Notes: generated by a model not told the origin, from the letters alone. A stretch of 63,965 nucleotides of DNA, filler included, from an uncultured bacterium (GCA_964637655.1; 10 parts of 10 records of this genome joined end to end with filler, not necessarily neighbours in it), one strand, 5' to 3'; shown: positions 13,931-27,599, counted from the first letter of the whole stretch. A program made the numbers and translations.

Positions 13931-16900
13931 CAATTCTTGAAGGGCGTTGGCCCGCAGCGGGCGGAACTGCTCGAACGGCTCGAAGTGCTGGCGCTGGGCA
14001 ATGCCGACCCGCACATCCATTTCGCCATCCTGCGCGATTTTGCCGACGCGGCGTCAGCGGCGATGCCGCAGGACGAGGCGATCCTCGCCGCGGCGCGTGC
14101 GGGCATTGCGGCGCTGAACGCCCGCGGCGGTGACGGGGGCGGCAACACCTTCTACCTGTTCCATCGCGCGCGGCAGTGGAACCCGCAGGAGAACGCGTGG
14201 ATGGGGTGGGAGCGCAAGCGCGGCAAACTCGAGGAGTGGAACCGCCTGCTGCGCGGCGCCACCGACACCAGTTATGCCGTGCAGGTCGGCGACCTGGCGG
14301 TGCTGCCGTCGGTGCGCTACTGTCTGACCCTCGATTCCGACACGCGCCTGCCGCGCGATACGGCAAAGAAACTGATCGGCATCATTGCCCATCCGCTCAA
14401 TCGCCCGCACTACGATGCCCGTCTCGGCCGGGTGACGTCGGGGTATGGCATCCTGCAGCCGCGGGTGAGCGTGACCATGGCGAGCGCGGCCGGGTCGCTC
14501 TTTGCCCGCCTGTATGCGGGCCATACCGGGGTCGACCCGTACACCACGGCCGTGTCGGACACCTACCAGGACCTGTTTGACGAGGGGATATTCACCGGCA
14601 AGGGGCTCTACGAGGTGGATGCGTTCACCGCGGCGCTCGACGGACGCGCCCCGGAGAACATGATCCTGTCGCATGACCTGTTCGAGGGGGTGTACGCGCG
14701 CACGGCGCTGGTCACCGATGTCGAGGTGGTGGACGACTACCCGGCGAGCGTACTGACCCACGCGCGGCGCCAGCACCGCTGGGTGCGGGGTGACTGGCAG
14801 ATCCTCTGCTGGCTGCTCCCGTGGGTGCCGTCACGGGCTGGCTGGCAGCGCAACCGCCTGCCGCTCATCGCGCGCTGGAAAATATTCGACAACCTGCGGC
14901 GGAGCGTGACGCCCCCCGCCACGGTGGTCCTGCTCCTGGCGGCCTGGTCATGCCTGCCGGGCAGCCCGCTGGTGTGGATGCTCGCGGTGCTCGCGCTGCT
15001 GGCCTTCCCGCTGGTCCCGCTCGCCTGCGCGGTGCCCGTACCGGGCCTGCGCCGGCCATGGGTGGTGGTGTTGCGCGCGGTGGCGGAGGATACCGCGACC
15101 ACGCTGGCGCGGATCATGCTGCAGGTGGTGTTCATGGCGTACGATGCCGCCGTGCGCACCCATGCGATCGTGCTGACCCTGGTGCGTCTGGCGTGGACCC
15201 AGCGGCGGATGCTGGAATGGGAGACCGCGGCGGCGAGCGCGCAGCGCCCGGCACAGCGCGACTACCGTTCGGGGATACGCCATTTCTACCGGGAGATGCT
15301 CGCCAGTCCGGTCCTCGCGGTGGCGGGACTGCTGCTGGCCGCGCTGCGCGGGCCGGGCACGTTCGCGGCGGCCGCGCCGGTGCTGGTGCTGTGGCTCGCG
15401 GCGCCGTCGGTCGCCTGGCGCCTGAGCCGGCCGGTGCAGCCGCGGCGCAGCGAACCGGGGGAGGCGGAGCGCACCCTGTTTTTGCAGGTGGCGCGCCAGA
15501 CCTGGCAGTACTTCGCGACGTTCATGGACAGCAGCAATCACGCGCTGCCGCCCGACAATGTGCAGGAGGTGCCGGAGCAGCGGGTGGCGCAGCGGACCTC
15601 GCCGACGAATATCGGCATGGGGCTGCTGGCGACGCTCGCGGCCTACGATCTCGGGTTCATCGATGTGCCGGAACTGACGCAGCGGCTCGACGCGACGCTC
15701 ACGACCATGGAGGGGCTCGAGCGCTACGAGGGGCATCTGCTCAACTGGTACGATACGCAGACCCTGGCACCGCTGGCGCCATCCTATGTCTCCACCGTTG
15801 ACAGCGGTAACCTCGCGGGCGCGCTGATGGCGCTGGCGGAAGGGTTGCGTCAGGTGCAGCGTGCGGCCGGGGGGGAGACGCTGCCCGGCCGGCTCGACGA
15901 ACTGGCGGCCCGCGCCACGGCGTTTGCCGACGGGATGAACTTCCGCTTCCTCTACGATCCGCAGTTCCGCCTGCTCGCCATCGGCTATCGCCTTGCTGAC
16001 GCCGGCGGCCCCGGCCGCCGTGACACCGCCACGTACGACCTGCTCGCTTCCGAGGCGCGCCTGGCGAGTTTCATCGGCATCGCCCGCGGCGAACTGCCCG
16101 AAACCCACTGGTTCCATCTCGGTCGGCTGATCACCAGCGTTGACGGTGCGCCCACGCTCCTGTCGTGGAGCGCGACGATGTTCGAGTACCTGATGCCGCG
16201 GCTGCTGATGAAGAGTTACCCGGAGACGCTGCTCGAACAGAGTTGCCGGATGGCGGTGCGGCGGCAGATGGCGTACGGCCGCGCGCGCGGCGTGCCGTGG
16301 GGCATCTCGGAATGCGCGTATGCCGCAGTCGACCGGCACGACACCTACCAGTACAAGGCGTTTGGCGTGCCCGGTCTCGGGTTGAAGCGCGGACTGGGCG
16401 ATGAGCTGGTGGTGGCACCGTACGCCACCGCGCTGGCGGCGATGCTGGAGCCGGCGGCTGCGGCCCGCAACCTGCGGCGGCTGGCCGACGCGGGGCTGTC
16501 CGGCGCGTACGGCTACTACGAGGCCATCGACTACACCCATCGTAAAGCCGGCGAGGCGGACGATGAGGCGGCTGCGTCTGCGTCGGGCACGGTGGTGCGG
16601 GCCTACATGGCGCATCATCAGGGGATGATCCTCGTGGCGCTGGCCAACGCGCTCAACGGCGACCTGATGGTCAGGCGGTTCCATGCGGACCCGCGGGTGC
16701 GGGCGACCGAGATGCTGCTGCAGGAACGGGTGCCGCGGCTGGCCGCGATCACGCAGCCGCGTCCCGTCGGGGAGACCCGGCTGGCGGAACCGGCAGCGGC
16801 CATGGCGATGCGTCGTTTCCGCTCACCGCACACGCAGGTGCCGCACGCGCAGTTCCTGTCCAACGGCACCTACACCGCGGTGGTCACCAATGCCGGCGGG

Positions 16901-19900
16901 GGCGCCAGTTTCTGCCGCGGTCGCGCGGTCACGCGCTACCGCGAGGACGGCACGCGCGACCCGGGGAGCCAGTTCATCTACCTGCGCGACGTGCGTGACG
17001 GGGCGGTGTGGTCCGCCACGTTCCAGCCGACCGCGGCGGAACCGGACGAGTACCTGGTCTCGTTCCTCGCGGAGAAGGCGACGTTCAACCGTCGTGACGG
17101 CGATATCGCCACGCAACTCGATATTGCGGTCTCAGCGGAAGACGACGTGGAAGTGCGCCGGCTGACGGTGACGAACCACGGCAGCCGCCCGCGCGAACTG
17201 GAAGTAACGAGTTATGTTGAAATCGTGCTGGCGCCGCCGGCTGACGACCTGGCGCATCCCGCCTTCTGCAAACTGTTCATCGAGACCGAGTACGTGCCGG
17301 AAAACGCCGCCCTGCTCTGCCGCCGGCGCCCGCGCGCGGCTGATGACGCGCCCGTCTGGGCGGTGCATGTCATGAGCCTTGCCGGGCGGATGCAGGGCGC
17401 AGTGGAATGGGAGACCGATCGCGCCCGGTTTCTCGGACGCGGGCGCGGGCCCGACAACCCGCAGGCGCTTGACGGCCGTTCGCTTTCGGGCACCACCGGC
17501 TTTGTCATCGATCCGGTGGCCTGTCTGCGCCAGCGCCTGCGGCTCGCGCCGGGCGGTTCCATGCGGCTGTCATTCGCCACCGGCATGGCGACGTCACGCG
17601 AGGCCGCGCTGGCCCTGGCGGTGCGCTACCACGAACCGAGCGCGGCGGCGCGCACGTTCGCCCTCGCGTTCGCGCAGGCGCAGAGCGCCTGCCGCTACCT
17701 GAACATCTCCCGGGAAGAGGCGCTGTTGTATGAGCGGCTCTCCTCGCGGGTGCTCTACGCGGACGATTCGCTGCGCGCCGCGCCGGAACTGCTGGCGCAG
17801 AACACGCTCGGGCAGCCGGGCCTCTGGCCGCACAGCATTTCCGGTGATCTCCCCATCCTGCTCGTGCGGGTGACTGAGGAGGACGACCTGACGCTGGTGC
17901 GGCAAGTGCTGCAGGCGCAGGAATACTGGCGGCTCAAGGGTCTGCGCGCCGACGTGGTGATCCTCAACGAGCATCCGGTGAGCTACTTCGACGAGATGCA
18001 TGCGGCCCTGACGGCGCTCCTCGACAACGGCCCGTGGCAGAACTGGAAGCACTGTCCCGGAGGGGCCTACCTGCTGCGCGGTGACCGGCTGGGCGCGGCG
18101 GAGCGCACGCTGCTGGTCAGCGTGGCGCGCGCGGTGCTGGCCGGCGACCGGGGTGAACTGGCGCAGCAGTTGCGCCGGCCCGATCCCGCCTGGCCGGTGC
18201 CGCTCCCCTTTGTGCCGACGGCGCCGGTGCCGGTCGCAGTGCCCATGGAGGTGCCGGTGCCGTCGCTGACACTGGCGCACGAACTGGGCGGGTTTGCCGA
18301 CGGCGGGCGCGAATACGCGGTGGTCGTCGACGGGGACCGGGAAACGCCGCTGCCATGGTGCAATGTCATCGCCAATCCGTCGTTCGGGACGGTGCTCAGC
18401 GCGTCGGGCGCGGCCTATACCTGGGCGGGCAACAGCCGCGAAAACCGGCTCACGCCGTTTGCCAATGACCCCGTCAGCGATCCGGCCGGCGAAGCGCTCT
18501 ACCTGCGTGATGACGACACCGGGGTGGTCTGGTCGCCGACGCCAGGTCCGCTGCCGCGCACGCCGGCTGATGGCCGCTGTGTGGTGCGGCACGGGGCGGG
18601 AATCTCGCATTTCACCCGCGCGCTGCATGGCATCCGCCAGTATCTCGATCTGTTTGTCGATCCGGCCGACCCGGTGAAATTCTCGCTGCTGACGCTGGTC
18701 AACGAAAGCGCCGGGGTGCGCCGCCTGAGCGTCTACGCCTATAATGCGTGGGTGCTGGGACCGCCGCAGGGTGGGCCGGGGGCGCTGATTGTCACGGAGC
18801 GTGATGCCGCGACCGGGGCGCTCTTTGCCCGCAACACGTACAGCCAGGAGTTTGCGGGGCGGGTGGCGTTTGCCTACACCGACGGGGCTGCGGATGCGAC
18901 CGGTGACGCCCGCTCGTTTCTCGGCCGCAACGGTGCTACGACCCGGCCGGCGGCGCTGCGCCATGCCGGTCTCTCCGGCCGTTTCGGGGCGGGGCTCGAC
19001 CCCTGCGCCGCGCTGCGCGTCGCCCTCACGCTGCAACCCGGGGAGACGCGCAACGTGGTCTTTATTCTCGGGCAGGGCAACGATGCGGAACAGGCCCGCG
19101 AGCTGGTGCGGCGGCACGGGCACCTGGCCGGCGCGGAGGCGGCACGCGAAGCGAGCCGCCGCGTCTGGGACGACCTGCTGGCGACGGTGCAGGTGCGCAC
19201 GCCCGACGATTCGTTCGACCTGCTGCTGAACCGCTGGCTGCTCTACCAGAACGTGAGCTGCCGCCTGTGGGCACGCTCGGCCTATTATCAGCCGGGCGGC
19301 GCTTTCGGGTTCCGCGACCAGCTGCAGGATGTGCTGGCGCTGACGCTGGCGCGCCCCGACCTGCAGCGCGCGCACCTGCTGCGGGCCGCGTCCCGGCAGT
19401 TCCGCGAGGGGGATGTGCAGCACTGGTGGCATGAGCCGTCCGGGCGGGGGACGCGCACGCGCTGCTCTGACGACCTGCTCTGGCTGCCGTACGCGGCGGC
19501 GCAGTATGTCGCGGCCACCGGTGATACCGGGGTGCTGGACGAAGTGGTGCCGTACCTCGAGGCGCCGCTGCTCGACCCGGGGGTACAGGACGCGTACGGC
19601 GAACCGCGCGTTGCCGCGGCAGCGGGCACGCTGTGGGAACATTGCCTGCGCGCGCTCGACAAGGGGCTGACCATCGGCGTGCATGGCCTGCCGCTGATGG
19701 GGAGCTGTGACTGGAACGACGGGATGAACCGCGTGGGACATGACGGGCGCGGTGAAAGTGTCTGGCTCGGCTTTTTCCTGCACACGGTGCTGACCGCGCT
19801 GGCGCCGTTGTGTGAACTGCGGCAGGATCACGAACGGGCCGCGCGCTACCGTGCCGAGGCCACCCGGCTTGGCGGCATTCTCGAGCAGGCGTGGGATGGC

Positions 19901-20680
19901 GAATGGTACCGGCGCGGCTACTATGACGACGGCATGCCGCTCGGCTCCGCGCAGAACGACGAATGCCGCATCGACGCCATCGCGCAGGCGTGGGCGGCGC
20001 TCTCGGGTGCGGTGCCCGTCCGCTTCGCGGAGCGCGCGCTCGACGCGGTGCGCACCCATCTGATCCGCCGCGGCCCGCAGGTCGTGCTGCTGCTCGATCC
20101 GCCGTTCGACAGCTCGGCGCAGGACCCGGGCTACATCAAGGGGTATCCGCCCGGGGTGCGCGAGAATGGCGGGCAGTACACGCATGGCGCGATCTGGGTG
20201 ATGATGGCCATGGCGAAACTGGGGAGCGGCGACGAGGCGATGGAACTGTTCCACATGCTCAATCCCGTCAACCATGCGCGTACGGCCGCCGACGTCGAGC
20301 GCTATCAGGTCGAACCGTACGTCATGGCGGGCGATGTCTACGCCCACCCGCAGCATGCGGGACGCGGCGGCTGGTCGTGGTATACCGGTGCCGCGGGATG
20401 GATGTACCGCGCCGGGCTGGAAACCATGCTCGGCCTGCGCCGTCGCGGCGACACGTTTGCTGTCGAGCCGTGCATCCCGACGTCATGGCCGGCCTACGAA
20501 ATCAACTGGCGGCATGGACAGACCCGCTACGAGATTGCGGTTACCAATCCGGGGCGCCGGTGCCGCGGTGTGGCGTCAGCCACGCTGGACGGCGTGGCGG
20601 TTGACCATGCCGCCATTCCGCTTACTGATGACGGTGGCGTGCACCACGTCTGCCTCGTGCTGGGCGATCCCGTGGCGTAG
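13931..20680 (+). CDS. ndvB: Cyclic beta-1,2-glucan synthase (Cgs/NdvB/ChvB; GT84 plus GH94 domains), 5' truncated
   Basis: [66 protein letters not shown] and RENGGQYTH. The first ~50 nt look foreign (see findings). Confidence 0.93.
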
Positions 20681-20868: not shown

Positions 20869-20923
20869 AAGTGGGTCACTTTGAAGTGCCCACGGGTGGG
20901 TCACTTTCAACTGCCCTTTGACA
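20869..20923 (-). mobile_element. Terminal inverted repeat of an IS21-family element at the contig end
   Basis: Minus strand TGTCAAAGGGCAGTTGAAAGTGACCCACCCGTGGGCACTTCAAAGTGACCCAC: TGTCA terminus plus tandem AAAGTGACCCAC subrepeats. Confidence 0.75.
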
Positions 20924-21093
20924 CCCAAATGCCGGCAGTTCAGAACCGGGGACAGTGGTCCTTCTGCCGCCAAGACGCGTATGTGGTCAACCAGTTTGGC
21001 AGCGGCAATGCCATTGTCTTTGGCTAACGCCTCAATGAAACCGGCAACCGGGTCCCGCCGCCCTTGACGAAAATACCGCACCTCCGGAATCAT
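20924..21093 (-). pseudogene. RelE/HigB (Gp49-like) toxin gene interrupted by the IS end
   Basis: MIPEVRYFRQGRRDPVAGFIEAL...IRVLAAEGP...RHLG resembles HigB/RelE N-termini; the frame runs into the IS terminus at 20923. Confidence 0.65.
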
Positions 21094-21099
21094 GGTCAC

Positions 21100-21128
21100 A
21101 GTATAAGCGATAACTTATATTTTGTCAA
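21100..21128 (-). promoter_or_regulatory. Consensus sigma70 promoter with overlapping palindromic operator; leaderless transcript
   Basis: TTGACA-17-TATACT, ATG 6 nt downstream of the -10; palindrome TATAAG-N6-CTTATA at 21102-21119. Confidence 0.8.
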
Positions 21129-21219
21129 GGACTTTTTTTGCCAATCCGGACAATGGTAGTTGAGAGTAATTGGGATCAATTCATCAACTGTTCCTATTTG
21201 CGTTTTGCCTGAGCGTTTT

Positions 21220-21284
21220 GCCTGACGATTAGCGTTCTGCGTTGAGCCGCGCGAGCGGCGAAGCACAGGAACGCGAAGTTAGCC
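21220..21284 (-). mobile_element. Integron attC site (distal), core GTC instead of GTT
   Basis: Minus strand GGCTAAC...51-nt imperfect palindrome...GTCAGGC; 46 of 51 internal nt identical to 22053-22117. Confidence 0.8.
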
Positions 21285-21330
21285 CGCGTTTCAACTATTT
21301 TATTGGGCATGCTTCTCCATGCTCCATAGC

Positions 21331-21987
21331 TTATATCATTATCGTTAGGCAACGGTATATGGCAATAACAACAAACACCCACAGGACAATTGCCAACGCA
21401 ATATTAAGCCATTGAATAACCGGGTGCTTTATCCGCATAAGACATATTCGTACTAGCATCAGCACTAACAATATCAGCAGTAGTCCAATTGTGAAATATG
21501 ATTTACCTGCGCGATAGCCGAGAGGAGGTAACTGTTCTGTCGTGCCTTGGGCAAACACATAACGGATCGTTTCCGATCCATATCGGTCGCCTTTATGCAC
21601 CGACATTACTGTATAATTCGATCCGTCGCTGGTGTAGGCGTAGTTGTTATTCCATGGATCACTTGTAATGGTTGCGATATACGGTCCATTCCAACCGAGA
21701 ACCGTGTCTGCCACTAGTTGGTTGAGAGTGGTGCGGGGAAATTGACTATCGGACACATCGACTTGATATAAAGCCAAAGCGGAATTGAATGCCCCAATAT
21801 CACCGCAGGCCGCGCCAATTTTTGATCTTTCAATATCACTTGTCAGCGGCACTGGCAGTATAGCAAGAAGCGGAATGCCCAACAGAAACAAAACCAACAA
21901 CAGGTAGAGCGGCCAAGCCGCCGGTGGTTTGCGCTGGACAGTAACCGGTGTGGAAATTGCACTTTCGGCATTATTTGGGCAATTCAA
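21331..21987 (-). CDS. Integron cassette gene: membrane protein with GspG/pseudopilin-like domain
   Basis: TTG start with GGAGG RBS; TM, then AFNSALALYQVD...FP...LNQLV...WNGPYI...DPWNNNYAY, then two C-terminal TMs. Confidence 0.75.
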   Translation of the reverse strand: MNCPNNAESAISTPVTVQRKPPAAWPLYLLLVLFLLGIPLLAILPVPLTSDIERSKIGAACGDIGAFNSALALYQVDVSDSQFPRTTLNQLVADTVLGWNGPYIATITSDPWNNNYAYTSDGSNYTVMSVHKGDRYGSETIRYVFAQGTTEQLPPLGYRAGKSYFTIGLLLILLVLMLVRICLMRIKHPVIQWLNIALAIVLWVFVVIAIYRCLTIMI

Positions 21988-22052
21988 TCGTTGCCTCCCG
22001 CGATTAGCGGAAAAACCATTTCGAACACTTTATCATATCTCATCATTTTACA

Positions 22053-22117
22053 GGCTAACGATTAGCGCTCTGCGTTGAGCCGCGCAAGCGGCGAAGCGCA
22101 GAAGCGCGAAGTTGGCC
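22053..22117 (-). mobile_element. Integron attC site (proximal)
   Basis: Minus strand GGCCAAC...imperfect palindrome...GTTAGCC, 65 bp, 16 nt after the stop of 22134-23192. Confidence 0.85.
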
Positions 22118-22133
22118 TTCGTGTCTTCATTTT

Positions 22134-23192
22134 TCAGTCGCCTTCTCTTTGTGCTATTTCATAGATACCAAATAATGCCATATTTCTATTTTCCCAAGGC
22201 CGTGACCTCTCAATGGTGATATATCTTCCGAAGCAGTAGACGTAGTATGGGCTAAGCACTGTCGAGTCTGCAAACTGAATTGTGTTGAACTCCATCGAGT
22301 CAACATCCAATACATTCAAAATACAATTTTTTTGAGAATCGCGGGTACGAAAGCAAATAAAGCGATTCATGGTTTCAAGCAGACTATCAGCACGAATAGC
22401 TTCAACTTCGTACTTGTAAAATACATTCATGTCAAAATCGTACACAATAATCCATGTAATATCTGGGATTGGGCCATTAGGGGGACGCATTCGAGGATAT
22501 GCTGAGAATATAAAATTTCTGCCCGATAAACAAAACTTCCACCCCCATCCTTCAAAACGGTATTCGTCATTTGGCAATAGTTCTTGCCTGATTATTCCAT
22601 TTCTGTCAATAAAATATAAGTGTTCGAGAACCGCCATGACTGACACCAACTGTTGATGTCTCGCAAGTACAACATTTCCCGCATCCGAAACAAATGCCCT
22701 CGTCAACGATATTTCCTTGGTCCATAGCTTAGTACCGTTATCTGTTGATAGTGATATAGTGTTATCGCTATCGTTACGAACTAAGCAATATACACGATTG
22801 TCTGACCATGCAATAACCGTGGCGTTCCCCGGAATGCTAATCCCCTCCCCATCGGCAGTATCACCGGACATTCCAACGGAATCGCCGCTACTTGCCGTGG
22901 CTTCATTTCCTATCAGTTGTCTTTTCATTTGTTCAAATTCGCTTCTCGAACTCGTGCGTGCGACTTGATTGATTTCGAATTGTTCGGTTTTGTGAAATGT
23001 TCGAGTAGCGAGCGCGGATATGTCCATAGGGGCAATATTGGTGTCCGTAGATATGCTTGCAGGTCTGCCTGTTTCGGAAGACGCCTCATTTATATCACAT
23101 ATCCCTGCACATTCACCGATAAATACAACATACAATGTTAGCAGTAGACTGGCCAACCATCTATGGTCCGATGTTGCACGTATTGCGTTCAT
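22134..23192 (-). CDS. Integron cassette gene: hypothetical exported protein (beta-rich)
   Basis: 352 aa AT-richer ORF with N-terminal hydrophobic segment, bounded by GTTGGCC (23246-23240) and an attC. Confidence 0.75.
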   Translation of the reverse strand: MNAIRATSDHRWLASLLLTLYVVFIGECAGICDINEASSETGRPASISTDTNIAPMDISALATRTFHKTEQFEINQVARTSSRSEFEQMKRQLIGNEATASSGDSVGMSGDTADGEGISIPGNATVIAWSDNRVYCLVRNDSDNTISLSTDNGTKLWTKEISLTRAFVSDAGNVVLARHQQLVSVMAVLEHLYFIDRNGIIRQELLPNDEYRFEGWGWKFCLSGRNFIFSAYPRMRPPNGPIPDITWIIVYDFDMNVFYKYEVEAIRADSLLETMNRFICFRTRDSQKNCILNVLDVDSMEFNTIQFADSTVLSPYYVYCFGRYITIERSRPWENRNMALFGIYEIAQREGD

Positions 23193-23239
23193 AGCATTGG
23201 TCTTAGTATCATTATTATTCCCATCCTACATTCATCACA

Positions 23240-23275
23240 GGCCAACGAGTTATTCTGTGAAAGCGTGTAACAACG
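23240..23275 (-). mobile_element. attI-like recombination site heading the cassette array
   Basis: Minus strand ...GTTACACGCTTTCACAGAATAACTC-GTTGGCC. The core is the exact complement of the first cassette's GGCCAAC; no attC palindrome upstream. Confidence 0.6.
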
Positions 23276-23304
23276 ATTGTACTGCGTTGCTTTTGGAAAG
23301 TCAA
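23276..23304 (-). promoter_or_regulatory. Pc-like cassette promoter
   Basis: Minus strand TTGACT-17-TACAAT about 30 nt upstream of the core site, pointing into the array. Confidence 0.75.
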
Positions 23305-23592
23305 GGGGGTGTTGAAATATGTCAAAAAGAGGGTGATTACGCAACGTATAGCCAGAAATGGTGTTGTGCTGGCGGCGGGAAAACGCGCGGGGGCGGGAAA
23401 ATCGCAACGACGATGATAAGTACGCCTATACGGGGTGTTACACGAAAGGGGGGAGCAACTGTGTGGCGGTTACTGACTGGCTGCCGGTCACGCGGCCGAC
23501 CGGGGAACTGCGCCCGCTGCGAATGGGATCGGGCATGCTCGCACGGTTATTGCCGGTAGTAGGTGACGGCAGAACGGAAGGGGCGGTGGGCG

Positions 23593-23622
23593 TTGACGGA
23601 GCCGCCTGACCGGTGCTACGAT
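23593..23622 (+). promoter_or_regulatory. Sigma70-type promoter of the retron
   Basis: TTGACG (23593-23598), 18 nt, TACGAT (23617-23622) with TG extended -10. Confidence 0.6.
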
Positions 23623-23795
23623 GGCTCTGCCACCCTGGCGGCGCACAAGCGCACGGCTGATGTTTCGTCAGCCCGGTCGCACGACCGTTGTTGAGAGTGC
23701 AGGGTATTCATATTCCGGTTGCACCGGAATATGAATAGCAGGGGGCGCGGGGACGGGCGACTGTCCCCGCTTTTCCAACCAAACCAGGAGAGCCA
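23622..23795 (+). ncRNA. Putative retron msr-msd RNA
   Basis: Hairpins at 23641-23652, 23655-23673, 23674-23687, a perfect 15-bp stem at 23705-23737 and a GNRA-loop stem at 23747-23770. Bracketed by complementary ends TGGCTCT..CCTGG / CCAGGAGAGCCA, directly before a retron RT. Confidence 0.7.
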
Positions 23796-23796
23796 C

Positions 23797-24663
23797 ATGG
23801 GCTTCCTTGATTTCCTCTTTGCGGGACGCGGGCACGGCATCGACGAACTGGCGCGGCGCCTGGGCATGGACATAACCGCGCTGCAGGCGGTGCCGGTGCG
23901 CTACCAGACCTTTACCGTCCCCAAACGCAGCGGCGGTATGCGCACCATCAATGCCCCGGAAAAAGAACTGAAAAAACTGCAGCGGAACCTGCTGCGGCGC
24001 GTCTTTGCCCGCTGGCACACGCATGATGCGGTGCACGGCTTCGCGCGCGGGAGGTCCATCCTCACTAACGCGCAGCCTCATGCGGGCAAACCCGTGGTGG
24101 TGCGCATGGACATCCGCGACTTTTTCCCCGCGACGAAAGCGGCACGGCTGACGGAGTTCTTCCGCAAACGCGGATGGAACAAACCGGCGGCAGCGCTGCT
24201 GACGCGCCTGTGTACCCACGAGGGCGGCCTGCCGCAGGGGGCGCCGACCAGCCCGTGCCTCGCCAACATGGTCAATTACGGACTTGATATCGCGCTGGCC
24301 GGATTGGCCGGCCAGCATGGTGCGGTCTATACACGCTATGCGGACGACCTGACCTTTTCCTTTGCCCGAGACGACCGCAACGCCATCCACGCGCTGGTGC
24401 GCCAGGCGAAATTCATCTGTGCCGGCGCGGGCTACACGCTGCACCAGAAGAAAAAACTGCGCATCCGCCGGTAGCATCAGCGACAGGAGGTGACGGGGCT
24501 GGTGGTCAACGTGCGCCCGCAACTGCCGCGGGCGACCCGCCGCCGTCTGCGCGCCGTCGCGCACCGGGCACGCACCGGAAAAATACCGACGCTGCGGCGC
24601 GAACAGCGCGCGGGGTGGGACGCGCTGCTGGGCATGCTCGGCTCACCCCTGCGTCTTTCCTGA
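23797..24663 (+). CDS. Retron-type reverse transcriptase, 288 codons, with in-frame TAG at codon 226 (24472-24474); pseudogene, error or readthrough
   Basis: AGGAG RBS; PKRSGG-R-I-AP, NAQPH (retron region X), DIRDFF, LPQGAPTSP, YADD. After the TAG the frame continues HQRQEVTGLVVN (region Y) to TGA 24661-24663. Confidence 0.88.
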
Positions 24664-24721
24664 GCGGCGCGCGGCACACACCTGCCTTGCACACACGGGG
24701 GGCAGATAAAACGGGAAAACC

Positions 24722-26200
24722 TCAGGACTGACGGGAGAGCAGGGGGCGCTGATCGGTGACGAGCTCGCCGCGACTGCCGTCGACGGAGAAGTGCAGCAGT
24801 TCGACGGTGCCGTCGGGGCGCACGTGGTAGCGCTCGCTGTCGTCGCTGATGCGGCGGAAGTAGCCGCCGCTGATGTCCTGGTAGAGGTCGACGGTGAAGA
24901 CGATGTCGCTGGCGCGCAGTTCACTGCGCGGGCGGACGGCGAAACCGCGGTCGCTCTCAACCACGGCATAGAGACCGTTAGGATTGCGGTAGCCGGCGAA
25001 GAGTTTCCCCTCTTCCTTGATGAAACAGTCGGCATCGAGCGGAAAATCGCCGTGGTCGGTCAGTTCGGTCAGGGCGCGCCCGCGCACGCGGTAACTCTTT
25101 TCCGAGGCGGCAAGCGGCAGCAGCGAAACGAAGCGGTCGGGCGAATGGGTGAGCAGCGTCGTCGGCAGTGACGGGTCGCTGCGCGCGGCGGCGATGTTGC
25201 GGTAGCTGGTATGCACGATGCTGCCGTTATAGTCGACGTCATGCACGAGCACGGCGTCGTCGTAGGCGTGCAGCGCCTCCTGCAGCCGCCGCTCGCTCCA
25301 TGTCTGCTCGATATAGTCGTTGATGTTGCCGTAGACGACGGGGGCGGCGAGAAACTCATCTCCGGTCAGCGGCCCCTTCTGCGGCCGCCGCTCGCTGACC
25401 AGCCGCCGCCAGAGCGCGGGGTCGTAGACCGTGTCGGAACTGAAAACAACCCGCGTCTCGCCGCGGGTAAAACGCAGGGCGATGGTCGGTGGGCCGTGCC
25501 AGGCGGGCTCCTTGAGCGCCTCGACCTGCAGGCCGTTCGCCGCGTCAGTAAAGACGTTGCGCTCCGCGGTGTAAAAGACGGTGTCGCTGAACGCGTAGTA
25601 GGATTCCGGCTCGACCCACAGTTGCGTGGCCGGGTCGCGGAAGAGCAGGCGCGGGCGGTTGGCCTCGGGATTGATGAAAATCTTCGCCTGCTGCGGCGGC
25701 ACCGGCCGGTTTTCCCGGTCAAGGACGCGCCAGACGCGCCCGGCGGGGGAATCGGTGAGCACGACGCGGTAGAGCGGTCGCGGTCCGAGCGTTACCTGCT
25801 CGACGAATTCCAGGTAGGGCATGTCGATGACGGTGCGCGAATCGCCGGAGAGCGAGCGCTCCAACGCCCCCTTGGAATTCTTGTGGAACTCGTCGTGGAT
25901 GGTGTCGGTGGTGACCAGGCGGAGCTTGCCGCTGCACCCCGGGGTATAGCGCTTGAACAGGGCGAGGTCGGTGAACCAGCGGCGGTGGTCCTCGTGCGAA
26001 TGGGTGGCGAAGATGCCGCGCAGCGACTGGATGCCGTCGGTGCCCAGCAGCTGGAAGACGGGGGCGCCGCAGTCGAGCAGGTAATGGTCATTCCCCGCCG
26101 TGATGCGGTAGCCGATGCTCTTGCCGATGAGCGAAAACGGGCCGGAATCACCGATAACGTCGATGAGGATGTCGTGGGCGGACTGCAGCGGTGGCATCAT
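24722..26200 (-). CDS. Metallo-beta-lactamase-fold hydrolase, long uncharacterised type
   Basis: GDSGPFS, LLDCG, THSHEDH, WHG and FSSDT motifs. Confidence 0.75.
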   Translation of the reverse strand: MMPPLQSAHDILIDVIGDSGPFSLIGKSIGYRITAGNDHYLLDCGAPVFQLLGTDGIQSLRGIFATHSHEDHRRWFTDLALFKRYTPGCSGKLRLVTTDTIHDEFHKNSKGALERSLSGDSRTVIDMPYLEFVEQVTLGPRPLYRVVLTDSPAGRVWRVLDRENRPVPPQQAKIFINPEANRPRLLFRDPATQLWVEPESYYAFSDTVFYTAERNVFTDAANGLQVEALKEPAWHGPPTIALRFTRGETRVVFSSDTVYDPALWRRLVSERRPQKGPLTGDEFLAAPVVYGNINDYIEQTWSERRLQEALHAYDDAVLVHDVDYNGSIVHTSYRNIAAARSDPSLPTTLLTHSPDRFVSLLPLAASEKSYRVRGRALTELTDHGDFPLDADCFIKEEGKLFAGYRNPNGLYAVVESDRGFAVRPRSELRASDIVFTVDLYQDISGGYFRRISDDSERYHVRPDGTVELLHFSVDGSRGELVTDQRPLLSRQS

Positions 26201-26252
26201 TGGCAGGAAAGAGCGGAACGAACTCCTTTCATGCGGTCATACGGTGAAAAAA

Positions 26253-26339
26253 TGGTGCCGAGGGCGGGAATCGAACCCGCATGCCCTTGCGAACACTAGG
26301 TCCTGAACCTAGCGCGTCTGCCAGTTCCGCCACCTCGGC
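26253..26339 (-). tRNA. tRNA-Leu(CAG)
   Basis: GCCGAGGTGGCGGAACTGGCAGACGCG-CTAGG-TTCAGGA-CCTAG-long variable arm-GGTTCGATTCC...CTCGGCACCA; encoded CCA. Confidence 0.97.
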
Positions 26340-26352
26340 ACAAACCAACTGC

Positions 26353-26397
26353 TTGTATTGTCGCAATAATAATACTATACTGCGCGTATATTGTCAA
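26353..26397. promoter_or_regulatory. Overlapping divergent promoters for tRNA-Leu and smpB
   Basis: Minus: TTGACA(26397-26392)-17-TATTAT. Plus: TTGTAT(26353-26358)-17-TATACT. Confidence 0.6.
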
Positions 26398-26412
26398 GGG
26401 AAAAGGTGATGC

Positions 26413-26904
26413 ATGGCAGGGCAGAAACCGGAGGCGCGGCAGGCGGCGCAGAAGCATATCGCGCAGAACCGCCGCGCGCGGCATGAATACGAGATTCTCA
26501 GCACGTTCGAAGCGGGCATCGTCCTGCAGGGGACCGAGGTAAAATCGCTGCGCGCCGGGCTGGTCAGCATCGCCGAGGCGTTCGGCCATATCCGCAACGG
26601 CGAACTCTGGCTGCAGCAGTGTCATATCGGGGAATACTCGCACGGCAACCGCTACAACCACGTCCCGTTGCGCGAACGCAAACTGCTGGTGCACAAGCGC
26701 GAGATCCGGCGGCTGTGGCAGAAGGTGACGACGGAGGGGCAGACCCTCATCCCGCTGCGCCTCTACTTCAAGCAGGGCAAGGCGAAGGTGGAAATGGCGC
26801 TGGGGCGCGGCAAAAAGAAGCATGACAAGCGGGGTGACATCCGCCAGCGTGAGGACAAACTGACGATGGACCGCGCCCGGCGCGATCGTGACCGCGGTGA
26901 GTAA
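26413..26904 (+). CDS. smpB: SsrA-binding protein
   Basis: IAQNRRARHEY, EAGIVLQGTEVKSLR, RKLLVHKREI, GKKKHDKR. Confidence 0.97.
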   Translation: MAGQKPEARQAAQKHIAQNRRARHEYEILSTFEAGIVLQGTEVKSLRAGLVSIAEAFGHIRNGELWLQQCHIGEYSHGNRYNHVPLRERKLLVHKREIRRLWQKVTTEGQTLIPLRLYFKQGKAKVEMALGRGKKKHDKRGDIRQREDKLTMDRARRDRDRGE

Positions 26905-27599
26905 CGCCGGGCGCGGACGCCCGCGCTGGTGGCTCTGGTTCGTCGCGGTGCTGGCCGTGCACGCGCTGCTGCTGGGCGGACTCGTGGTGTACCGGCAGGC
27001 GGAGCGCGCGGCGATGACGGACAACGACATCCTGGCGACCGGGAAATATGCCGCCGGCTACCGTGATACCCTGCTGGCGCAGCAGGCAGCGCTGCAGGCG
27101 GAACTGGCGGCCCTGCGCGCGACGGACGGCACGCTGGCGGCGAAACGTGCGGCACTGCAGCGCGCGACGGAACTGGCGCCCCGTCTCGATGAACTGGAGC
27201 GGGAACTGGCTGCTGACGCGGCCGCGCGCGCCGCCATTCTCGCCCGCTGGCAGGCCTATGACCCGGCGGCCGGCGCTGTCATGCAGTTGCCGGGCATGCT
27301 GTTGCTGACCGCGGTGCTGCTTGGCTGGGGCGCGGCAGCCGCACGTGCTGACGGTGTGCTGCGCCGCGTGCGGTGGGGCGCGGGACTCGGCGCGGCCTGG
27401 GCGGGCGCGCTGGCGCTGGTGACGGTAACCTGCCTCTGCCTGATGCAGTCGCTCTACCCGTGGCCGGAACTGGGCCTCATGCGTGCCGTCCCCTTCGTGG
27501 TGATGGCGCTGCTGCTGGCGCTCAACGCGGCGGCGGGCTGGCGCCTGGCGCGCAGCGGGCGTCCGCGCTGGCTGTATCTTGCCACCGCCCTGCTGCTGG
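26897..27599 (+). CDS. Hypothetical membrane protein with coiled coil, 3' truncated
   Basis: TM, coiled coil, then several TMs; overlaps the smpB stop. Confidence 0.55.

Follow-up and report, generated by a model that had tools for sequence, protein, structure and literature searches.

An integrase-less attI-Pc platform with a cassette array lies beside a putative stand-alone retron in an uncultured bacterium

The window analysed in the present study is a 63,965-nt stretch in which contigs of an uncultured bacterium (genome G000; 65% GC, 485 contigs, 90.6% complete) were joined by N spacers, and the locus described here lies on one 6.7-kb contig, C210 (window 20869-27599). Its features are listed in Table 1. 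An array of two full integron cassettes and a third one cut by an IS end runs leftward from an attI site, and the terminal repeat that cuts the array is one that we take, from the repeat pattern, to be IS21-like. A retron promoter, a structured RNA and a retron-type reverse transcriptase (RT) run in the opposite direction; the neighbours of the RT are the leader on one side and a convergent MBL-fold gene on the other. The GC content was 43-46% in the cassette ORFs, 64-70% in host genes and 66% in the RT. The array starting at the core at 23246, the Pc-like promoter, and the divergent promoter with its structured RNA and retron RT had been proposed in a first-pass annotation, and all of them were confirmed. 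The contig belongs to the lineage, since the gene order smpB, tRNA-Leu and MBL-fold gene was common to G001, the one comparison genome of the same family, at 68-74% identity. At this locus in G001, the next gene was an endonuclease-V-like ORF (named by inspection), and no RT, leader or attC was found there. The other 39 comparison genomes share only the domain with G000, so the absence of the RT from them is uninformative.

Table 1. Features of the cassette array, the intI leader and the retron (window positions)
Feature	Position	Strand	Remarks
IS21-like (presumed) terminal repeat at contig end	20870..20924	.	cuts the array; matches the contig starts of C155 (55 nt, identical) and C280 (85%)
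Cassette 3, cut by IS end	20925..21225	-	own promoter 21128-21100 (11/12 match); small-ORF start at 21099, leftward
attC closing cassette 2	21220..21284	-	R'' GGCTAAC, R' GTCAGGC
Cassette 2 ORF, 218 aa	21331..21987	-	GC 0.46; GspG/T2SSG pseudopilin-like domain between hydrophobic segments
attC closing cassette 1	22053..22117	-	R'' GGCCAAC, R' GTTAGCC
Cassette 1 ORF, 352 aa	22134..23192	-	GC 0.43; family: none
attI	23240..23275	-	core G/TT at 23246; degenerate L box 5 nt upstream; further GTTACAC-type repeat
Pc-like promoter TTGACT-17-TACAAT	23276..23304	-	consensus match; position kept in homologous leaders
Rest of intI leader	23305..23463	+	ends in purine-rich RBS and GTG (23461-23463) in the intI ATG register of G001
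Retron promoter TTGACG-18-TG-TACGAT	23593..23622	+	divergent from Pc, TG-extended
Retron ncRNA (msr-msd)	23630..23743	+	closing arms 23633-23637/23739-23743; candidate branch G 23638; three msr hairpins; msd hairpin 23705-23737
GC-rich hairpin separating ncRNA and RT	23745..23770	+	also in homologues
Retron-type RT, 288 codons	23797..24663	+	NAQPH, YADD, VTG; GC 0.66, host-like; in-frame TAG 24472-24474

The two attC sites were each 65 bp long and 83% alike. On the bottom strand, the site at 22053-22117 folded with a z of -4.2, and the site at 21220-21284 with a z of only -1.4. A profile of this attC family gave 37 hits on 14 contigs of G000. The start of each cassette was complementary over seven bases to its own attC (GTTGGCC with GGCCAAC in cassette 1, GTTAGCC with GGCTAAC in cassette 2), and these core-site matches were as expected for integrated cassettes. 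The complementarity fixed the head crossover at G23246, upstream of which no attC arm was found; a degenerate L box and the Pc-like promoter were present instead. The cassette 1 ORF had no match in Pfam, PADLOC, NCBIfam or PHROGs, and in the Atlas it fell only into unnamed clusters, at 0.90 with low recognition. The cassette 2 ORF matched PF08334 in Pfam (E 2e-12) and had 13 further matches in G000 (38-65% identical), which represent a host-expanded pseudopilin family; such likeness to a host family was seen in only 1 of the approximately 29 cassette ORFs examined. The ORF piece of cassette 3 had no match in Pfam or PHROGs, and we assume that this cassette resembles a toxin-antitoxin cassette. 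With no fewer than two attC sites that share one orientation and no intI nearby on the 6.7-kb contig, 4.3 kb of which lie on the intI side, the array is a CALIN by definition. Compared with a complete integron, the simple attI site and Pc were found at the array head (Pc by consensus match only), and intI was missing beside attI, where the leader is followed by no IntI remnant.

The stretch 23247-23463 is non-coding and was homologous to the leader that precedes a full intI in G001. The register of the two was the same, as the window leader ends in AACT/GTG at 23461 and the intI of G001 has AACT/ATG. That this stretch is an intI leader ending at the start-codon register had been missed in the first-pass annotation. 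Its statement that no intI coding remnant lies between the array and the retron was upheld, since none was detected behind the window leader by tblastn, with a profile built at the DNA level from four intI 5' ends, or with an N-terminal protein profile. The window leader was also homologous to three more G000 loci, namely C230 (blastn E 5e-8), C59 (E 2.5e-9) and C445, of which the last was weak by profile (E 0.38), yet identical to C230 at 26 of 28 nt at the core. The other G000 leaders adjoin nitroreductase-like, radical-SAM-like and pilin-like ORFs (names by inspection). A motif in the leader was considered as an SOS box and rejected, as visual inspection of the regions upstream of recA and the two lexA-like genes in G000 did not reveal it.

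A leader profile built from the four G000 leaders (C210, C230, C59 and C445) was used to search 17 stretches of G001 chosen for attC, leader or intI matches. It found nine leaders, with E values of 3e-19 to 2e-5 and one weak match at 0.036, bringing the homologous leaders of the two genomes to 13; the attI of the window was aligned with 11 other leaders. Of the nine G001 leaders, eight stand at the head of like-oriented attC sites, and the remaining one (L012) is immediately followed by a full intI. Behind the other leaders, intI was found at various stages of decay: frameshifted (L148), with a large internal deletion (L149), reduced to approximately 42 codons (L150) or to the ATG alone (L154), and nothing recognisable as intI followed L145, L147, L156 and L158. 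The G000 assembly, with its 90.6% completeness and 485 contigs, held no intact intI and only three 3' fragments at contig starts, two of them behind a repeat end. A search with a 54-aa fragment for the full-length IntI of the same species gave best matches that were 74-90% identical, none of them the same. These sequence comparisons suggested that the bacterial family carries many integrase-less attI and Pc platforms and that most intI copies are decaying. The loss of intI, previously an assumption, is supported by this homology.

The junction between the two halves of the locus was examined in contigs from four public runs of three studies (X1, X2, X5 and X6; contigs only, depth 2-6), of which two (X1 and X2) are possibly related to the source sample. 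X1 bridged cassette 1 to attI (22878-23312) and X2 bridged the leader to the ncRNA (23316-23717), both with 0 differences, and the passage from the ncRNA to the RT was bridged by X2 and X6. A misjoin, named in the first-pass annotation as something that would overturn it, was rejected because the overlaps of the four bridge every point from approximately 22910 to 23930 with at least 31 letters on each side; the whole region was spanned by overlapping pieces and not by a single contig. X5 matched 23244-23447 (204 nt) with 0 differences and continued with 81 unlike letters beyond the attI core. X6 departed from the window sequence at 23242 and had an ATG 15 nt after the core G. Since both leave the window at the attI core, they carry different first cassettes there. 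The cassette switch at the same core in two other studies indicated that the site has turned over cassettes, although X5 and X6 are short contigs that may come from a duplicated leader elsewhere, and the swaps may predate the loss of intI. The turnover probably proceeded through IntI acting in trans.

The RNA upstream of the RT (23625-23800) folded at a z of -6.2. A UUCG-loop hairpin was present within 700 nt upstream of the RT in 23 of the 24 homologue loci with at least 50% identity, in 17 of 22 at 45-50% and in 9 of 42 below this, as surveyed in the 88 of 91 RT loci with enough flank. In a five-helix model (closing arms, three msr hairpins and the msd hairpin) of 25 sequences, 89.7% of cells were paired and 20 of the 29 pairs showed double changes; these figures lean high, because the model came from the same alignment, the sequences were hand-picked for a clear match and the 3' arm of the window was misaligned. 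None of 500 shuffles reached the model, and slid controls gave 35-45%. Promoter boxes similar to those of the window were seen by eye before the RNA in several RT-homologue loci. The search against Rfam 15 gave no family for the ncRNA, with only tRNA-Leu at the gathering threshold and three chance matches at E 0.9-4.8.

Two of the features that define a retron were found at the locus: a contiguous ncRNA with closing inverted arms, a candidate branch G and an msd hairpin (a structure read from the same alignment), and the NAxxH, YADD and VTG motifs in the RT. The RT scored best against retron RT models (PADLOC RT_XIII, E 3e-83), and the group II intron model gave 50 bits against a cut-off of 300. 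The type XIII partners, SWIM zinc-finger and HEAT/ARM genes linked to the RT, were absent. Judged from its sequence, the retron is a stand-alone one, with its own promoter, msr-msd RNA and RT and no partner gene. A further observation, which the first-pass annotation had missed, was an in-frame TAG at RT codon 226 in the G000 assembly. The near-identical X1 (677 nt, 2 differences) and X2 (246 nt, 1 difference) and the related X6 had a C at 24472, and the 93% identical RT of P0002 was intact; the piece of X5 at this position comes from a distant RT. Recoding of the TAG was not needed, given the C in these contigs. The RT subfamily was found mostly in Planctomycetota-like MAGs.

The more far-reaching suggestion of the first-pass annotation was a recurring RT-integron arrangement bearing on the origin of cassettes, with attC arrays enriched upstream of RT homologues. 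It was examined in 91 RT-homologue loci, which were the best 80 of 592 from genomes and 11 from metagenomes (72 with at least 2 kb upstream) and leave out the closest homologues P0002 (93%) and P0003 (67%). None of these 91 loci carried IntI, an attC array or the leader, and neither the family attC profile nor the leader profile gave a significant match in them. Two matches to the IntI profile were rejected, one lacking the IntI insert region (L117) and one being a 97-aa piece (L104). A generic attC heuristic yielded 152 candidates dispersed over 1.11 Mb, at a recovery of only 14 of 25 known sites, and inspection of the five loci richest in them revealed no homogeneous array. Two loci with a GC drop upstream (L041 and L076) were likewise inspected and had no array. 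In 44 viral RT loci (at most 43% identity), no attC, leader or ncRNA match was found. No conserved neighbour of the RT emerged, the largest neighbour cluster comprising 3 of 49 close RT loci.

The leaders gave the same picture, as the RT adjoins one of the 13 and the other 12 have no RT beside them. By PF00078, G000 and G001 have one RT each; that of G001 is group II intron-like and lies away from arrays, with neither an attC nor a leader next to it. In the comparison with a relative that had been proposed, G001 showed many arrays (34 attC-like matches), no retron RT or ncRNA, and no array at the counterpart locus. The outcomes for the RT homologues, the leaders and G001 are of the kind that the first-pass annotation had named as refuting a recurring arrangement, and the RT-integron link was not supported.

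Taken together, we consider it very probable that the locus reflects the loss of intI and the chance adjacency of an integron platform to a stand-alone retron. A chance juxtaposition after intI loss had been one of the two readings offered at the outset, and it was supported by the leader homology and the decay series. Two independent elements would lie back to back. One would be a chromosomal integron platform that lost the intI coding sequence and kept attI and Pc together with the leader as far as the intI RBS; Pc would read into promoterless cassettes, and new cassettes could still enter attI when IntI is supplied from another locus. The family would have multiplied such platforms and let most intI copies decay. 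Active integrases carry a fitness cost, according to the available part of PMC3510236, and the loss of intI from the platform is consistent with this cost. The other element would be a member of a stand-alone retron subfamily that occurs in unrelated neighbourhoods, and it would make branched msDNA from G 23638 by copying the msd hairpin. That the retron stands where intI would be expected would follow from the deletion or replacement of intI at this site, and not from the retron acting as a substitute for IntI; we infer the order of intI loss and retron arrival, and no empty site lacking the retron was seen.

A different history of the platform is unlikely, although several details speak for it. 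The attI-Pc leader could be a module that was copied to new chromosomal sites without intI, for instance by IntI acting at a GTT overlapping the intI start and at attI or attC, and the site beside the retron would then be a landing that never held a whole intI. Consistent with this, three G001 comparisons, L150 with L154 (91% identity) among them, showed homology ending 0-3 nt from the intI start register, and the homology between C210 and C230 ended 17 nt past this register. On the array strand, the first bases of most leaders are GTT, which lies in an inverted-pair motif resembling that of attI. However, intI remnants of every length were found, as ordinary decay predicts, and the bases beyond the GTT were kept (an A before it; ATG or GTG in L154, C210 and C230), unlike in a G/TT crossover. 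Selection on an operator over the RBS would explain the same edge.

It is very unlikely that the retron is functionally tied to the array, its RT or msDNA helping to make or deliver single-stranded cassette DNA and so replacing or assisting IntI. We regard as highly doubtful, too, the specific version in which an effector-less, domesticated retron at the intI position copies host transcripts, such as those of the pseudopilin family, into ssDNA that IntI in trans integrates at attI. An RT cannot perform strand exchange, which counts against the retron replacing IntI. A tie would accord with the divergent position of the retron, 130 nt from the intI start register, at a junction that is real, with the resemblance of cassette 2 to a host-expanded family (up to 65%), and with the origin of cassettes, stated to be unknown in the available part of PMC4889954. 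In near-identical contigs the RT is intact, and its GC content is like that of the host, which points to a long resident. Against this stand the single leader of 13 with an RT, the empty result for the 91 homologue loci (best 80 of 592 plus 11), and the many attC-like matches of G001 without a retron RT or ncRNA. In addition, the ncRNA had no second copy or attC likeness in G000, the msd DNA was modelled as a perfect stem without an R box or extrahelical base, unlike attC, and likeness to a host family was confined to the one cassette ORF. The absence of an attC after the RT by the attC profile agreed with the first-pass view that the retron is not itself a cassette. It is extremely improbable that the retron is an anti-phage system with an effector from the array or in trans, its adjacency selected as a defence hot spot. 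Such a role would fit the best score of the RT, against retron RT models, and the defence functions that retrons and integron cassettes both carry. However, PADLOC gave no match for cassettes 1 and 2 or the gene downstream of the RT, the first cassette varied between samples, and no conserved partner was found in the 49 RT loci; the term defence island used earlier was not borne out, as no defence gene was detected among the cassettes scanned.

The preferred reading, intI loss with chance adjacency, places the locus among known systems. The proposal that an RT helps to form cassettes stems from group IIC-attC introns and reportedly goes back to Leon and Roy (2009). The known RT-integron link is that of these introns, whose maturase RTs are inserted into attC inside the array, as described in the available text of PMC4424553 and PMC7923331. 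The present locus shares with them an RT beside an integron array, but its RT is of the retron type and lies outside the array; a group IIC-attC intron was rejected, as the RT is not inserted in an attC and scored far below the group II cut-off. The connection with an RT, on which the appeal of the locus rested, is not sustained, and what is left is modest yet usable, namely the persistence of attI and Pc platforms without intI.

Stand-alone (orphan) retrons, as described in the available parts of Mestre et al. (2020; PMC7736814) and the SPIRE survey (PMC13712802), consist of (msr-msd)-RT without an effector. The window retron agrees with them in its NAxxH and VTG motifs, its contiguous ncRNA with closing arms and its lack of an associated protein. 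It differs from those described there in occurring mostly in Planctomycetota-like MAGs and in its three-hairpin msr, absent from Rfam 15, and from type XIII, its best RT profile, in lacking the SWIM/HEAT partners. A stand-alone subfamily with a covarying RNA that is absent from Rfam 15 would be well suited to asking what role retrons without an effector play.

A CALIN is a cluster of attC sites without intI. Among the routes proposed for CALINs by Cury et al. (2016; PMC4889954) are the loss of intI and mobilisation in trans, and these authors also note that for most integrons a search for attI was not feasible. In Xanthomonas, integrons whose intI is inactivated are reported in a preprint (bioRxiv 10.1101/2025.06.18.660453), again with intI loss and mobilisation in trans as proposals. 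At the level of titles and the first lines of abstracts, the literature searches gave nothing that dealt with retrons heading integrons or with lineages in which several platforms retain attI; the ncRNA models of Mestre et al. may cover the ncRNA. Like the CALINs and Xanthomonas integrons in these partial sources, the window array carries no fewer than two attC sites and no intI beside them. Unlike them, it retains attI and Pc together with the leader as far as the start of intI, it belongs to 13 platforms over two genomes that form a decay series, and its intI-less site shows cassette turnover. The 13 aligned attI sites come from a little-studied lineage. Some CALINs may accordingly be platforms that still express and receive cassettes, and not dead arrays. 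Relative to these known systems, the locus appears to be new in degree, with many attI and Pc platforms per genome, a visible decay series and turnover at a site without intI.

The attI-Pc-intI leaders of the source genome and its sole family relative were compared. It was observed that every leader carried two similar inverted-pair motifs, GTT..TAYAC-N6-GTRYAA, the first at attI and the second across the intI RBS, and that one of the relative's leaders with no recognisable intI behind it (L147) carried a perfect 24-bp palindrome. These motifs possibly serve IntI autoregulation.

Inverted-pair motifs in the leader of the window array
Feature	Window position	Location
Inverted-pair motif 1	23250-23275	at attI
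Inverted-pair motif 2	23430-23460	over intI RBS

The central domain of the pseudopilin-like cassette 2 (21331-21987, minus strand) was 38-65% identical to 13 other GspG-like stretches of the source genome, which lay in surroundings of higher GC. Cassette 2 looks to have been taken from a family expanded in the host. Elsewhere in this genome, the cassette at C271:1687 encoded a 73-aa ORF with 93% identity to a C446 gene, which followed a 3' fragment of intI and was not covered by any attC mask. A neighbouring contig within the window held a 2247-aa ORF (13937-20680), by inspection cyclic beta-glucan synthase/GH94-like, with no relation to the array or retron.

At two loci of RT homologues, a second copy of the retron promoter/ncRNA preceded a non-RT ORF: at L041:7029-7128 the copy was partial (70%) and lay 769 nt upstream, and at L020:3087-3213 it was complete and lay 2.6 kb upstream. 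The close RT homologues P0017 and P0065 were longer and carried a TIGR03067 label, suggesting that domain fusions exist within the RT subfamily of the window retron.

One terminal repeat occurred at contig ends of the source genome (C168:21-80, C215:1-59, C480:1566-1620, and C130:1-60), immediately preceding the H[ST]FAT motif in four genes for tyrosine recombinases, of which two were intI. This repeat may explain the absence of a whole intI from the assembly, and we presume that it is similar to RIT-element ends.
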